IMG/VR virus record: IMGVR_UViG_3300042569_001383
Coordinates: 1 to 24,124 of that record
Source: a virus
Taxonomy: Duplodnaviria; Heunggongvirae; Uroviricota; Caudoviricetes
DNA: 24,124 nucleotides
Strand: one strand, 5' to 3'
Shown here: positions 3,078 to 17,996 of the stretch, piece by piece
Position numbering within the stretch: position 1 is the first letter of the stretch
Layout: every line of letters starts with the position of its first letter
Notes under the pieces: model-generated
Told to the model about the DNA's origin: nothing
Seen by the model: only the letters and a program-made list of their open reading frames with translations
The model's database searches: none
Made by a program: the position numbers and the translations under genes

Positions 3078-3412
3078 TTTATAGGTGTTACTGTTACATG
3101 TGCTTTGCCTTGCGAATGTGGAGCAATGTGTCCAAAAGCAGCATAGCTTAAATCTATTCGGTTAGGTGACTTTACACCCATTCGGTCCGTTACACGTACG
3201 GTGCAACACGCTGAGGTCGTGACATTTCGTATCTCTAATCTGGTTCCTAATGCAACATGATTGTAAGCGGCTGTCAATGAATCTCGATGCATCCTTGTAC
3301 CCGAAGCGGTGCGACTGCCGTGCATATCATACCAAGTAGCCACACAAGGCGTAGCAGGTGCAGACAATATGGCAGTCGCAATGTATAATAATAATGCTAT
3401 CATTTTACCCAT
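3074..3412 (-). CDS. rlpA: RlpA-like double-psi beta-barrel protein (septal-ring lytic transglycosylase family) with signal peptide
   Basis: ATWY...RTASG...AAY...LGTRLEIRN...VRVTDR...RIDLSYAAF pattern; hydrophobic N-terminus. Confidence 0.8.
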   Translation of the reverse strand: MGKMIALLLYIATAILSAPATPCVATWYDMHGSRTASGTRMHRDSLTAAYNHVALGTRLEIRNVTTSACCTVRVTDRMGVKSPNRIDLSYAAFGHIAPHSQGKAHVTVTPIK

Positions 3413-3579
3413 GAATTAATTAATAATAATATCGTGCACACTACATACACAAAAGCAGTTTGCTTCAAGATGATTGCCCAAACTTTTCCGGTGCGATCCT
3501 TGGAGGTATCGTTTGCTATGAGTATGAATATGCTACTAGGCAATCCAGCAATCAAAGCTAATATAATCATTGTTGTCAT
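3400..3579 (-). CDS. Small membrane protein (59 aa, two hydrophobic segments)
   Basis: Hand-translated MTTMIILALIAGLPSSIFILIA...FVYVVCTILLLINSWVK. Confidence 0.6.
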   Translation of the reverse strand: MTTMIILALIAGLPSSIFILIANDTSKDRTGKVWAIILKQTAFVYVVCTILLLINSWVK

Positions 3580-3583
3580 GTTG

Positions 3584-3784
3584 TTATTTTTTTGTGAACC
3601 AACGATTCAAAGTGGTCGCTACAGGTTCTGATTGTTTTTTTGTTTTTGTTTTCTTTGTGACAGTTGCAGGCTTTGGTTTCATGAACTGGTCCTCTGCAGT
3701 TACAGTTCCTTCCAATACTTTCCGATATGGAACAATATTGCGTTTTTCGTTGTCGAAATTCAAATTTGGTCTTATTGCTGTCAT
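3584..3784 (-). CDS. Hypothetical basic protein (66 aa)
   Basis: ORF track; in co-oriented gene run. Confidence 0.6.
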   Translation of the reverse strand: MTAIRPNLNFDNEKRNIVPYRKVLEGTVTAEDQFMKPKPATVTKKTKTKKQSEPVATTLNRWFTKK

Positions 3785-11384: not shown

Positions 11385-12455
11385 TTAAAATGCTAAGTCT
11401 CGGTAAGATTTGTGATATGATTTTGTGGATTCATATGTCAATGATTTCTTTTTGCCATTAACATCTTCATACTCAATTACTGGTGCCGACAATAAATTAA
11501 TACGACCCATATACATGCCGTCTACATATAAATCTCGACCTATCAATGCACTCGGTTTGCGTTTGTATGAATCCGGATTAGGTTCGATGTCAACACTGAC
11601 ATACTTTGGCAATGTTAAAGTTGCGGATTCCGTTACGTCGCCGTCATATACATTGAACGATGTGCCTTTTTCTTTGACATTGAACACTGATTTAAACGCT
11701 GCAGGTGCTTCGTTAAATGTATTTACTTCATGCACAATTGCCTTAACGATGTCAACGGTAATCATTTCTAATACTGAAATAAATTCAATGGTAGCTTCTC
11801 GGTGATCCGTATACAACAACATGTCATCTACAATCTCTTCGATAACGTCACGTTCCAAATCATTGAACTCAACTACGTATCTTAATCTACCTGGACATTG
11901 CAACAAGTTTTCATTAATATACATTTTATTCGTAGTGAATACAAACAATCTTCTATGTTCGGTTTTCAAGGCACCATCCATAATGGTAAGAATATTTTTA
12001 CTAGTATCCACCGTATAGTCTTCAACGTTTTGAGAAAACACTTTTTCAAATTCGTCAACAAATACCGTAATATCTTGTTCAATTCCAGCTAATATTTCCG
12101 ATAATCCTTCAAATTCTTCAGTGATTAAAATAACCGGCATATTGCGTTCTTCTGCCATTTTGTTGCAAATCATTTCGGCAGTCACTGACTTACCAGTTCC
12201 TTTCAATCCGTTCAATAGGATACCTAAATTACCTGTACTATTATCATATGCAGTTGCAACACGATTAATCAATGACATATTGTGGCCATAAATTTTATAC
12301 GGGAAGGTAAAATCTGGTTTGATTTTTTGGAAATACATTGGTTGCAATGGAGGAGTTTTAATTACATACACTCCAGGTGTCAATTTGTTTTCAAATGTTG
12401 CCGTAGATATCGGATAAAAATTATCACCATCTTTTGACCATGCTCTGTTATTCAT
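11385..12455 (-). CDS. AAA+ family ATPase
   Basis: Walker A GLKGTGKS, Walker B VFVDE, FTTN sensor-1, PGR. Confidence 0.9.
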   Translation of the reverse strand: MNNRAWSKDGDNFYPISTATFENKLTPGVYVIKTPPLQPMYFQKIKPDFTFPYKIYGHNMSLINRVATAYDNSTGNLGILLNGLKGTGKSVTAEMICNKMAEERNMPVILITEEFEGLSEILAGIEQDITVFVDEFEKVFSQNVEDYTVDTSKNILTIMDGALKTEHRRLFVFTTNKMYINENLLQCPGRLRYVVEFNDLERDVIEEIVDDMLLYTDHREATIEFISVLEMITVDIVKAIVHEVNTFNEAPAAFKSVFNVKEKGTSFNVYDGDVTESATLTLPKYVSVDIEPNPDSYKRKPSALIGRDLYVDGMYMGRINLLSAPVIEYEDVNGKKKSLTYESTKSYHKSYRDLAF

Positions 12456-12811: not shown

Positions 12812-12885
12812 TGGACCAGCCTGGACTCGAACCAGGGACCGGCGCGTTATGAGCGCGCTACTCTAACCAACTGAGCTACAGGTCC
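12812..12885 (-). tRNA. trnI-CAT: tRNA with CAT anticodon, Ile2 (lysidine)-type body
   Basis: GGACCTGTAGCTCAGTTGGTTAGAG...CT CAT AA...GGTTCGAGTCC; Ile2 versus Met assignment is inference. Confidence 0.8.
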
Positions 12886-13056
12886 AAATTGCTTGTCTTT
12901 CCAAGCTACCAATAAAATAAAAAACACGCTCTTAAGCATTCTACTCCCAGCTCCGAGGAATTGTATATAACTTAGCCCGATACTCACCGCTGTACAGGTA
13001 CTTAGGTTTGCGTGTTTGCGATCCATGTTCTGATTTCGGGATGAATCTTTCCCACG
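12886..13056 (-). ncRNA. Candidate structured RNA in tRNA spacer
   Basis: Stems 13010-13017/12922-12929 and 12999-13004/12933-12938; hairpins 12978-12989, 12891-12906 and 13038-13053. Confidence 0.45.
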
Positions 13057-13151
13057 TAGTCAGGACAGGATTCGAACCTGCAATGTACTTTGCTAACCTC
13101 TTGTAACCGGCTACATTCCCTAGTTAAGCGTTACCATTCCGCCACCTGACT
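13057..13151 (-). ncRNA. tRNA-like RNA with intact acceptor, D and T arms but no canonical anticodon loop
   Basis: AGTCAGG/CCTGACT acceptor, GCGGAATGGTAACGC D arm, GCAGGTTCGAATCCTGT T arm; 23-nt insert replaces the 7-nt loop. Confidence 0.75.
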
Positions 13152-13209
13152 ATTTAAAACTTGTAAAACCCACCCCATGGCAAGGAAACTCCGTTTCGTG
13201 TTTTTTGCG

Positions 13210-13293
13210 TACCCCAGGCGGGACTTGAACCCGCACGAGCATAATGCCCACTGAATTTTAAGTCCAGCGTGTCTACCATTCCACCACCGGGGC
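13210..13293 (-). tRNA. trnL-TAA: tRNA-Leu(TAA)
   Basis: Cloverleaf, CT TAA AA loop, long variable arm. Confidence 0.95.
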
Positions 13294-13451
13294 AAATGGC
13301 AATTTAATTGATTAGATCTCACGAAGCATTGCCAACTCCGAATGAAGAACGATTTACGGCTTTACTTCAATGATTCCCGCCTTTGTCTCACGCCCAAAAG
13401 TATGTCGAAAGGTTTCTGGGATACCTATAACCTCAAGTAATCATCTTGTAG
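13294..13451 (-). ncRNA. Candidate structured RNA in tRNA spacer
   Basis: Stems 13297-13303/13328-13334, 13343-47/13365-69, 13371-75/13439-43 and 13410-14/13429-33. Confidence 0.35.
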
Positions 13452-13524
13452 TAGCGGGGGCGGGACTCGAACCTGCGACCTTCAGGTTATGAGCCTGCTG
13501 AGCTACCAACTGCTCTACCCCGCT
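13452..13524 (-). tRNA. trnM-CAT: tRNA-Met(CAT), initiator-like
   Basis: AGCGGGGTAGAGCAG...CT CAT AA; A11-U24 pair as in fMet. Confidence 0.9.
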
Positions 13525-13530
13525 ATATTG

Positions 13531-13602
13531 TATTCCCACGGAGAATCGAACTCCGATTTTTAGGTTGAAAACCTAATGTCCTAACCGTTAGACGATGGGA
13601 AC
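13531..13602 (-). tRNA. trnE-TTC: tRNA-Glu(TTC)
   Basis: Cloverleaf, TTAGG TT TTC AA CCTAA. Confidence 0.95.
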
Positions 13603-14243
13603 TCATATAATCTTATAAAATCTTTACCATATGTTGAAATGACATACTCAAATTCTTTTTTTAAGTCATCTCGCATCAAAACAACCAAATTTGGTACTGA
13701 TTTTATCTTAGCTAAAGTTTGTTCGTTTACAAAACCTTTTATTTCAATTATCTTGACACCTTGAACGAAATCCGGATAATACTGATATTGTTTTCCATTA
13801 AATGTATACTCGTATGATTGAGTGTTTCTACTAAATGGAATATCATGATCCAGTTGATATATTACCCAAGCTAACTCATAACTGCTATCACACCAAATAC
13901 CTTTATACCAACCATGTTTACCTCTTCCAGCACCTTTTCGATTACCGCCAGAACATTTAATCCAACATTCTGCATGATACTTTTTTATTTTGTATTTAGA
14001 AGTACCAGGTTGATTACAATATTTACATATAAAATTTTGAACCGCAGACCCTTTCCATCCAGGATGTAGTTGTCCAAATTTACCTTTATTAGTAGCACAT
14101 TTTGGATTTCCTTTATTAGCAAGACTTTTTTTTAATCTTACTGCATCATTTTGTACTCTACTATTTCTACATTTCAAAGAACAATATGAAACCAATCCTT
14201 TCGTTGGTTCAAAATCATTGCCACATTTCTTACATGTTTTCAT
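13581..14243 (-). CDS. Putative free-standing PD-(D/E)XK endonuclease with N-terminal Zn-binding motifs (homing-endonuclease-like)
   Basis: CKKC...CSLKC, CKYC, DSSYEL, YYPDF...IEIKG; AAGGAG SD. Confidence 0.75.
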   Translation of the reverse strand: MKTCKKCGNDFEPTKGLVSYCSLKCRNSRVQNDAVRLKKSLANKGNPKCATNKGKFGQLHPGWKGSAVQNFICKYCNQPGTSKYKIKKYHAECWIKCSGGNRKGAGRGKHGWYKGIWCDSSYELAWVIYQLDHDIPFSRNTQSYEYTFNGKQYQYYPDFVQGVKIIEIKGFVNEQTLAKIKSVPNLVVLMRDDLKKEFEYVISTYGKDFIRLYEFPSSNG

Positions 14244-14610: not shown

Positions 14611-14754
14611 TTAAAAACCATACGACATAAATTGTCTATACATAATATGTTCTTCCTGGCACGCACATTCCGTTAACGTACCTTGAAATAAAATCGAATT
14701 ATCTGACAACGCAATCAATTGATATGTGTCATTAATTAAATGTCTAATTTCCAT
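14611..14754 (-). CDS. Small hypothetical protein (47 aa, MEIRHLINDTY...)
   Basis: Start reassigned to 14754, downstream of the promoter at 14775-14803. Confidence 0.55.
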   Translation of the reverse strand: MEIRHLINDTYQLIALSDNSILFQGTLTECACQEEHIMYRQFMSYGF

Positions 14755-15656: not shown

Positions 15657-15662
15657 ATATTG

Positions 15663-15748
15663 AGGAAAGCATTGGAATCGAACCAAATACCTTTGCAGGT
15701 ACACATTGCTTAGCAGGCAAGCCCTATCGCCATCAAGGTTTACTTTCC
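15663..15748 (-). tRNA. trnS-GCT: tRNA-Ser(GCT)
   Basis: CT GCT AA loop, variable arm TACCT GCAA AGGTA. Confidence 0.9.
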
Positions 15749-16983: not shown

Positions 16984-17042
16984 TTGTCAACTGTGTAGCA
17001 ATTGCAAATTACTTTTTGTATAGCGCACAGTTGCTCGCTTTG

Positions 17043-17126
17043 AGGAAGAAGTAGGTGTCGATCCCAATACCTTGCAGTACCACCCGCTTTCAAGGCGGAG
17101 TCACAGGCCGCTGTGATTCATCTTCC
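17043..17126 (-). tRNA. trnS-TGA: tRNA-Ser(TGA)
   Basis: TCCGC CT TGA AA GCGGG, long variable arm. Confidence 0.9.
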
Positions 17127-17234: not shown

Positions 17235-17245
17235 ATGTTCTTTTG

Positions 17246-17318
17246 AGCTTTGAGAGGGACTCGAACCCACAACCTCATCATTACAAGTGACGTGCACTAC
17301 CAATTGTGCTATCAAAGC
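17246..17318 (-). tRNA. trnT-TGT: tRNA-Thr(TGT), first tRNA of the array
   Basis: CGTCA CT TGT AA TGATG. Confidence 0.95.
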
Positions 17319-17326
17319 ATATATGT

Positions 17327-17358
17327 AAAAATCCCGAGCCTAATTAAAGACCCGGGAC
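17327..17358 (-). terminator. Intrinsic terminator / attenuator hairpin
   Basis: GTCCCGGGTCT-TTAATT-AGGCTCGGGAT (11 bp incl. G-U) followed by TTTT; ends 8 nt before tRNA-Thr. Confidence 0.8.
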
Positions 17359-17397
17359 AATTCATTTATATATAAAAATGTATTAACTTATCCCGGA
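17351..17397 (-). promoter_or_regulatory. Putative antiterminator hairpin
   Basis: TCCGGGATAA (17397-17388) pairs 10/10 incl. G-U with TTGTCCCGGG (17360-17351), the 5' arm of the terminator. Confidence 0.65.
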
Positions 17398-17517
17398 ACT
17401 TCCTGTATATTGCTTTGGATCTTGAATCGGCAGCTCCACACAGAAGCGGCTATGATTCGATACCTGATTGGCACTCGACCAACTTAAGCAATTTGATATG
17501 TTAATACGTGTTTTCAT
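17383..17517 (-). CDS. Putative attenuator leader peptide, 44 aa, contains all 20 amino acids
   Basis: Hand-translated MKTRINISNCLSWSSANQVSNHSRFCVELPIQDPKQYTGSSGIS*; two promoter motifs upstream; terminator downstream. Confidence 0.7.
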   Translation of the reverse strand: MKTRINISNCLSWSSANQVSNHSRFCVELPIQDPKQYTGSSGIS

Positions 17518-17523
17518 TTCTAG

Positions 17524-17534
17524 TTATAAATATA
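17524..17534 (-). promoter_or_regulatory. TATATTTATAA motif upstream of leader ORF
   Basis: Third identical copy, 6 nt upstream of ATG 17517. Confidence 0.55.
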
Positions 17535-17567
17535 GGGTTACTTACTTTTCTTTTTATTTATATATTA

Positions 17568-17596
17568 AATATATGAACTTTTTTTTTAATTTCCAA
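17568..17596 (-). promoter_or_regulatory. Promoter TTGGAA-N17-TATATT driving leader and tRNA array
   Basis: Repeated promoter motif; -35 overlaps the thioesterase 3' end. Confidence 0.75.
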
Positions 17597-17996
17597 CCGT
17601 TTTGCCAAGAATGTTTAAAATTCTTTTACGTGCTTTATCTCCTAATGGAATTGCATGGCCTTCTTCATCTATTTGCACAAATTTCATGTTGGTTTTGAGT
17701 ACTACCGTTTGCTTTCCGGTGTATACATTGTGTGCACGTGCTTCAATGTACAATGTAACTGATGTGGTACCTAACTCTTCGGGACGACTAAATATTTTAA
17801 GCAATTGACCTTCTTTGCTTGGCTTCTCGAATGTACATTTGTCAATCATTACCGTTACCATGCGGGGCGTATCACATAGTTGCATTGCGTATGCCACTGC
17901 GGATGCATCCAGCCAAGATAAAAGTTTGCCGCCAAAAAGGTTTCCATGAAATCCTAAATCAGATTTCTTTATTGGGTGTGTTGTTATTAGTTCCAT
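17586..17996 (-). CDS. Acyl-CoA thioesterase (hotdog fold, YciA-like)
   Basis: DLGFHGNLFGGKLLSWLD...VTVMID...F...G...GTTS...FVQID pattern. Confidence 0.9.
   Translation of the reverse strand: MELITTHPIKKSDLGFHGNLFGGKLLSWLDASAVAYAMQLCDTPRMVTVMIDKCTFEKPSKEGQLLKIFSRPEELGTTSVTLYIEARAHNVYTGKQTVVLKTNMKFVQIDEEGHAIPLGDKARKRILNILGKTVGN

Follow-up and report, generated by a model that had tools for sequence, protein, structure and literature searches.

A leader that has the makings of a ribosome-mediated, leader-peptide transcription attenuator stands at the head of a phage tRNA array. There are no expression data, and we put the probability that the leader acts as such an attenuator at roughly 0.6. 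The elements themselves, their energies and non-randomness, covariation in the closing helix (P1) and in an inner hairpin, and conservation of the design in relatives are observed directly. A first-pass annotation of this DNA had proposed a translated leader, a terminator, and an antiterminator that excludes it. The energetics of the window support this proposal, and the frame conservation, covariation, and composition of the family do so more strongly; translation of the leader ORF in vivo is inferred.

The phage and its tRNA array

The window is the whole stretch analyzed here, 24,124 nucleotides, and forms the first 24 kb of an IMG/VR virus record of 145 kb that is ~86% complete. The phage is uncultured, and the public runs that contain the window are lake-water and freshwater metagenomes. 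Neighboring genes encode type IX secretion sorting domains, which points to a host in the Bacteroidota as the likely one.

ARAGORN found 23 tRNA genes at its default setting and 25 with relaxed scoring, the additional two being tRNA-Ser genes. This agrees with the 25 tRNA species counted in the first-pass annotation and excludes three relaxed-threshold calls: a 96-nt 'His-atg' on a tRNA-like element and two plus-strand calls that overlap tRNAs. Together, the 25 tRNAs cover all 20 amino acids. Both tRNA-Ser(tga) (17042–17126, minus strand) and tRNA-Ser(gct) (15662–15748, minus strand) were missed by the ARAGORN default and by the Rfam gathering score and were found at the relaxed threshold; the Ser tRNAs of relatives occupy the corresponding places in their arrays. 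Thr-tgt leads most of the related arrays as well as this one.

Other features were seen within the array. A 47-codon ORF (14611–14754, minus strand) lies downstream of a promoter at ~14805, and its TAA is immediately followed by the first base of tRNA-Gly, with no terminator in between. Codon usage gives it a borderline score of 0.02 bit per codon; the ORF may be a small gene or a leader of some other kind. An ORF of 220 amino acids (13581–14243, minus strand) has no Pfam match, and its relatives occur within tRNA arrays of quite different phages, as expected of a mobile endonuclease. The inter-tRNA spacers at 12886–13056 and 13294–13450 (minus strand) are enriched in G+C and are without a leader-type ORF, and a weak terminator-like site lies 40 nt upstream of the last tRNA-Met. 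Reading the stretch from 12880 to 13460 revealed no homologue of the second leader module described below.

Promoter-like elements

The features at the head of the array are listed in Table 1.

Table 1. Elements of the leader region, given as window positions
Feature	Position	Strand	Basis or remark
Promoter, GGTTGGA-N18-TATAAT family (TTGGAA 17596–17591, TATATT 17573–17568, spacing 17)	17563–17600	minus	Consensus scan and family copies
Second promoter-like box, TATATTTATAA	17524–17534	minus	6 nt ahead of the ATG; like the Bacteroidota -7 element TAnnTTTG
Leader ORF, 44 codons plus TAA (17385–17383)	17383–17517	minus	20 amino acids; 5' end homologous to the 27–37-codon ORFs of 39 related arrays
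P1 5' strand (region 1): AUGAAAA, GUAUUAAC, UAUC; holds the start codon	17495–17517	minus	Fold and two adjacent compensatory pairs versus L003
Three-way junction (codons 9–37)	17409–17492	minus	Stem 17492–17486/17415–17409; hairpin 17483–17467; long hairpin ~17458–17424; folds of window and L003 agree
P1 3' strand (part of region 2): GAUA, GUUAAUAC, UUUUUAU; contains the stop codon	17372–17392	minus	Fold
Antiterminator 5' strand (region 2), codons 39–44	17386–17401	minus	Near-copy of the terminator 3' arm; pairs with 17362–17348
Terminator hairpin (regions 3 and 4); 5' arm 17362–17348, 3' arm 17341–17331	17331–17362	minus	dG -16 to -18 kcal/mol
Terminator U-run (U5)	17326–17330	minus	Sequence and terminator scan
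tRNA-Thr(UGU)	17245–17318	minus	First of 25 tRNA genes; starts 8 nt past the terminator

Members of two promoter-like families lie upstream of the leader, so that two promoters appear to feed it. The promoter that had been placed at 17596–17568 proved to be a member of the GGTTGGA-N18-TATAAT family, which has at least nine copies in the genome on the coding strand, most of them 15–40 nt ahead of gene starts, and it is kept in L003, the nearest relative. The second box, TATATTTATAA, has 4 exact and ~10 one-mismatch copies in the genome, all of which are on the coding strand, intergenic, and upstream of gene starts. Minus-strand examples of the two families (GGTTGGA-N18-TATAAT and TATATTTATAW, which resembles the Bacteroidota -7 box) in the G000 genome are at 1300, 2696, 6147, 14321, 14805, 23949, 51237, and 56815. 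In relatives, a TAnnTTTG box occurs ~35 nt upstream of the second promoter-like box.

The start of tRNA-Thr (17318–17245) 8 nt beyond the hairpin and U-tract was as first annotated. The gap between the U-run and this gene has no room for a promoter, and the first tRNAs can therefore be transcribed only through the hairpin. A TATAAAT-like sequence at 17364–17372 had been raised as a possible independent promoter; it matches neither promoter family.

The leader ORF

The leader ORF (17517–17383) was found as first described, with 44 codons, all 20 amino acids, and 34 distinct codons. Eight amino acids occur once and Ser occurs nine times. A permutation check, proposed along with that description, found coverage of all 20 amino acids to be rare: it occurs in 0.5% of the 44-residue windows of this proteome and in 0.7–2% of random open frames. 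Tandem regulatory codons for the amino acid sensed, a mark of such attenuators, are lacking; the leader has no run of any one codon. We therefore file it as a variant, rather than a plain member, of the ribosome-mediated attenuators.

The codon usage of the ORF scored -0.35 bit per codon, which is typical of spurious frames and lies below all 2458 real windows. A low score is expected anyway for a leader that contains all amino acids, but we counted it against the attenuator. A protein search with the leader peptide yielded no candidate, and no product of a gene caller resembling it is on record. Among the variants listed, third codon positions account for 5/18 variant sites in the ORF, without any excess, compared with 19/26 in the adjoining thioesterase gene (p = 0.005), which likewise speaks against the attenuator.

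Retention of amino-acid diversity in relatives had been put forward as a check. Diversity alone gave a combined p of ~8e-4 over five lineages. The lake-water variants listed alter the only Phe codon and the only Glu codon of the window leader. This leaves strict maintenance of all 20 unproven, and the full content may not be strictly maintained.

Terminator and antiterminator

The 11-bp terminator hairpin and U-tract of the first-pass annotation are both present. The core of the hairpin (17358–17331) has 11 pairs, 3 of which are G-U. On the minus strand it is the sole terminator-like site within 5.7 kb, and it is among the strongest such sites in the genome, where similar ones are found at several gene ends.

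The last codons of the leader can pair with the 5' arm of this terminator, with a dG of -13.3 to -14.9 kcal/mol as a hairpin and -19.1 kcal/mol as a duplex. The ten out of ten pairs previously drawn between 17397–17388 and 17360–17351 are real, two of them being G-U. When the 199 nt upstream were dinucleotide-shuffled, only 0.35% of the shuffles paired with the 5' arm as well as this, and only 0.05% did so when the proximal 70 nt were shuffled; across the tests, the antiterminator has p = 0.0005–0.007 versus shuffles. An attenuator needs a terminator between the ORF and the tRNAs and an antiterminator that is exclusive with it and lies where a ribosome stopped at the end of the ORF would cover it. 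The leader meets both criteria, and the energetics of the window support the mutual exclusion and masking that had been suggested.

The whole leader folds into a three-way junction closed by the 19-pair helix P1, and the minimum-energy fold has z = -3.95. By joining 17517–17495 with 17392–17372, with 2 compensatory pairs versus L003, P1 meets the further criterion of pairing between regions 1 and 2. Its overlap with the antiterminator strand is limited to its GAUA(A) segment. The start codon sits within P1, and this we counted against an attenuator. The 'pause hairpin' noted earlier does exist, but it is one arm of the three-way junction closed by P1, which had gone unseen. Acceptor-like and D-like stems at 17492–17409 raised the possibility of a degenerate tRNA, which was rejected because there is no T arm.

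The window leader and that of L003 differ at 13 columns. Four of these make up the two compensatory pairs in P1, one changes a G-U pair of the junction to A-U, and the others are at unpaired positions. Among the lake-water variants listed there is also a compensatory change in the junction from U-A to G-C (17445/17435). Taken alone, the window is ambiguous on coding; its codon usage looks non-coding and the changes in L003 follow the RNA helix.

When the nascent transcript was modeled with a ribosome footprint, the antiterminator had a probability of 0.76–0.97 with the P-site at codons 1–35 (at least 0.92 at all but one position) and a probability of 0 from codon 37 on. It also dominated (0.95) in the same nascent model without a ribosome, and termination of an untranslated leader thus requires that P1 form first, an assumption about kinetics. 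When the full-length RNA is folded at equilibrium, P1 plus the terminator prevail (P = 0.998), and the antiterminator is favored by stalls at codons 1–10 alone. The first-pass claim that stalling up to about codon 36 frees the antiterminator therefore stands for the nascent transcript only and fails at full-length equilibrium. We counted the equilibrium result against the attenuator; like the variants that lose the only Phe and Glu codons, it makes sensing of all amino acids less secure.

The junction-bearing form of the leader

No other copy of the window-type leader was found outside its closest relatives. Covariance model R1, which represents this type, was run on 5 large related records, 38 of the loci anchored on the thioesterase gene, 10 tRNA-array loci that are unrelated, and the rest of the genome, and matched none of them. 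Exact and degenerate patterns of the leader and tRNA-Thr were found among viral contigs in the L003 contig only, and two metagenome scans with them returned nothing. Neither tblastn nor blastn with the leader as query revealed a paralogue in any of the loci or in the genome, and blastn against GenBank phages gave matches to tRNA-Thr only. From the negatives with R1, the junction-bearing form is known only in the window phage, L003, and the lake-water variants. In the Rfam search, tRNAs alone reached gathering scores and no cis-regulatory family, T-box included, did so; relaxing the threshold to E up to 10 gave nothing better in the leader than the L20 leader, with 19 bits against a cut-off of 58.7, which is noise.

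Anchoring on the thioesterase gene gave 44 loci, and the array adjoins that gene in L003 only. L003 has an extra gene of ~85 codons (3395–3700) between the thioesterase gene and the leader promoter; it is lipoprotein-like and has its own GGTTGGA promoter. A 297-kb related phage (G003, locus L061, ~670–975) has a 5-tRNA array without such a leader. Upstream of that array are an HNH-like ORF, a G+C-rich, structured-looking stretch, and, 5 nt ahead of the first tRNA, a long hairpin with a T-run.

Related leaders and their reading frame

In two related phages, the tRNA array is likewise preceded by a promoter box, a small ORF, and a terminator. Searching with a pattern derived from the box and start that these have in common retrieved 90 stretches, of which 39 (32 distinct) consist of leader ORF, terminator, and tRNA array. 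The survey of related genomes for an ORF and terminator ahead of tRNA arrays, which had been proposed at the outset, thus gave 39 related contigs with both. Most other matches to the pattern are ordinary genes of 106–181 amino acids that share the box and start. In all, TATATTTATAA together with ATGAAAAC precedes the 39 leader ORFs and ~40 such genes in related phages, which indicates that this start is used for real proteins.

Each of the 39 leaders has the box, an ATG, an ORF of 27–37 codons, and a terminator at the head of the array, and the frame is open in 39/39. In the main group of 27 sequences, all indel sites within the frame (6/6) are exactly 3 nt, compared with 1–7 nt for indels in the spacer and terminator loop, and the other two frames contain 2–7 stops. 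Substitutions in this group are spread about equally among codon positions (34/35/39), and pN/pS is 0.78. These results indicate that the frame is under selection and the peptide hardly so, as a regulatory leader predicts. It is these frame-preserving leaders in related phages that moved our reading from a structured non-coding leader to a translated one.

When relatives were analyzed with RNAalifold, the terminator was the sole conserved structure, with 4 covarying pairs. The distance from the stop codon to the T-run is 46–55 nt in every module. The leaders of relatives, which are shorter, lack the three-way junction. For most first leaders of the main group, the antiterminator does not reach significance by itself (p = 0.2–0.7), which we counted against the attenuator. 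In a subgroup of first leaders, the last-codon antiterminator changes together with the terminator.

A second leader module

In several main-group phages a second leader of 22–24 codons, with its own terminator, precedes the distal block of the array (Leu-taa, Phe, Met, Gly, Glu, Asp). Such modules occur in L137 (from ~base 12271, counted with the array on the plus strand), L132, L071, L067, L085, L115, L146, and L147. The last 3–4 codons of the second leader are complementary to the 5' arm of its terminator, and this last-codon antiterminator has the same geometry as that of the window's leader. The two strands co-vary and are found in three states; 2/8 sequences are mismatched. Covariation in both hairpins, looked for on the suggestion of the first-pass annotation, is accordingly seen in the four terminator pairs of the first leaders and between antiterminator and terminator in the second module.

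Leader composition and the tRNA block

We compared the amino acids encoded by each leader with those served by the tRNA block that follows it. In 5/6 comparisons, no amino acid of the block is missing from its leader. The first leader of the main group lacks Asp, Glu, and Gly, and its block lacks Ala, Asp, Glu, and Gly. The second leader, unlike the first, has Gly, Asp, Ala, and Glu. It lacks Cys, Pro, Gln, Trp, and Tyr, all of which are among the 14 kinds missing from its block of Leu, Phe, Met, Gly, Glu, and Asp. Asp, Glu, and Gly are thus lacking in the first leader as in its block, whereas the second leader has them and so does its block. The L068 leader lacks Ala, Cys, and Arg (its block lacks Ala, Cys, Phe, Leu, Arg, and Ser), and that of L072 lacks Ala, Asp, Gly, Leu, and Tyr (its block lacks these five and others). 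In the leaders of the window and L003 no amino acid is absent, and none is absent from the tRNA block. The lone exception to the rule is the leader of G004, which lacks Asp; its block lacks Ala and has tRNA-Asp. The match in composition has a combined p of ~1e-3, obtained by multiplying hypergeometric values computed by hand under a uniform null.

Discussion

On the attenuator reading, transcription would start at either of the two promoters, and a ribosome would translate the 44-codon leader and so sample all 20 amino acids. A ribosome that quickly arrived at the UAA would cover codons 39–44, the terminator would form, and the transcript would end 8 nt ahead of tRNA-Thr. Were the ribosome held up because any one charged tRNA was not available in usable form, codons 39–44 would be expected to pair with the 5' arm of the terminator, with read-through into the tRNAs. 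If the leader were not translated, P1, which joins the start-codon region with the stop-codon region, would be predicted to hold back the antiterminator. The tRNAs are probably made when ribosomes decode slowly. Both the direction of the switch and its signal are inferred, as is the ability of any codon to trigger it.

Amino-acid operon attenuators are represented in Escherichia coli and Salmonella by trpL, hisL, leuL, thrL, and pheL, and by the multivalent ilv leaders. The phage leader resembles them in having a short leader ORF, which in those systems is translated, an intrinsic terminator ahead of the genes under control, an antiterminator that a ribosome at the stop codon would cover, and a region 1–2 helix that competes with the antiterminator. 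By contrast, the regulated genes here are phage tRNA genes rather than those of biosynthetic enzymes, the leader has one to few codons for each of 20 amino acids (nine for Ser), it is long at 44 codons and contains a three-way junction, and the likely host is one of the Bacteroidota and not an enterobacterium. T-box riboswitches (RF00230) likewise use a competing terminator and antiterminator to couple tRNA status to transcription of translation-related genes. The phage leader differs from these in having no family match, specifier loop, or T-box sequence, and sensing would occur via the ribosome rather than by direct binding of tRNA.

Parts of the data could be accommodated without any sensing, by a translated leader with a partial terminator in which the ORF stays open because translating it shields or opens up the 5' end of the precursor and the hairpin merely fixes the ratio of short transcript to precursor. 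That the frame is conserved and the peptide is not, that most main-group first leaders lack a significant antiterminator, and that RNAalifold finds only the terminator conserved would all be in keeping with this. However, such a leader leaves unexplained the significant last-codon antiterminator of the window, the covariation in the second module together with the constant distance from stop to terminator, and the match between leader and tRNA-block composition, and we consider it unlikely although not to be dismissed. A riboswitch-like or factor-binding leader would have the P1-closed junction bind a ligand, tRNA, or protein, with the stability of P1 deciding between antiterminator and terminator and the window ORF being incidental. 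There is no Rfam match to suggest this, T-box included, the covariance model finds no other copy, and the 19 pairs of P1 are long for a riboswitch. The 39 homologous leaders, moreover, have no junction and still keep the ORF and terminator. This has to be set against the fold with z = -3.95, the 13 differences in L003 that are all compensatory, G-U to A-U, or unpaired, the non-coding look of the ORF's codon usage, and the overlap of P1 with the antiterminator, which is the usual riboswitch layout. On balance we allow this idea a small chance.

The logic of the switch might also be the opposite, such that a ribosome trailing the polymerase closely to the stop codon suppresses the terminator and tRNAs are made when translation is fast. 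In the available part of one report, ribosome proximity is described as suppressing intrinsic terminators sited close behind a gene (PMC4824070), and the constant distance of 46–55 nt from stop codon to T-run would suit such an effect. But the stop codon is 24–33 nt before the hairpin, which is beyond the ribosome footprint, and this logic provides no role for the antiterminator or its covariation; it seems rather improbable to us. Finally, because promoter, structured RNA, and terminator make a complete unit, the region could be a stand-alone small RNA gene of ~200–240 nt with its own promoter and terminator and unrelated to tRNA control. The T4 tRNA cluster, for instance, encodes stable RNAs. 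tRNA-Thr, Gln, Ser, and Pro would then be left with no other promoter, and frame conservation in relatives is unexpected for a non-coding RNA, so that we find this reading very hard to credit.

The purpose of phage tRNA genes has been debated for decades and, to our knowledge, almost nothing is known about their regulation. Our literature search found no description of trp-operon-style attenuation controlling phage tRNA genes. Codon compensation and escape from tRNA-cutting defences are among the reasons proposed for such genes in the parts of two papers accessible to us (PMC10264068, PMC11555353). Returning to the attenuator, a tentative extension, and one we hold as possible rather than probable, is that the leader senses the health of decoding in general, so that slow decoding of any of the 20 classes releases the complete set of 25 tRNAs on demand, and that relatives split this logic into two modules tuned to their blocks. 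What slows decoding could be starvation, a mismatch between phage and host codons, or the cutting of tRNAs by host nucleases in defence against phage.

The family offers natural variants of this design, with 32 distinct first leaders and 8 second leaders whose composition shifts with the tRNA block. If the leader reads decoding speed and gates the array, then the phage would supply tRNAs on demand, and the classic logic of attenuation would extend from amino-acid synthesis to the tRNA pool.
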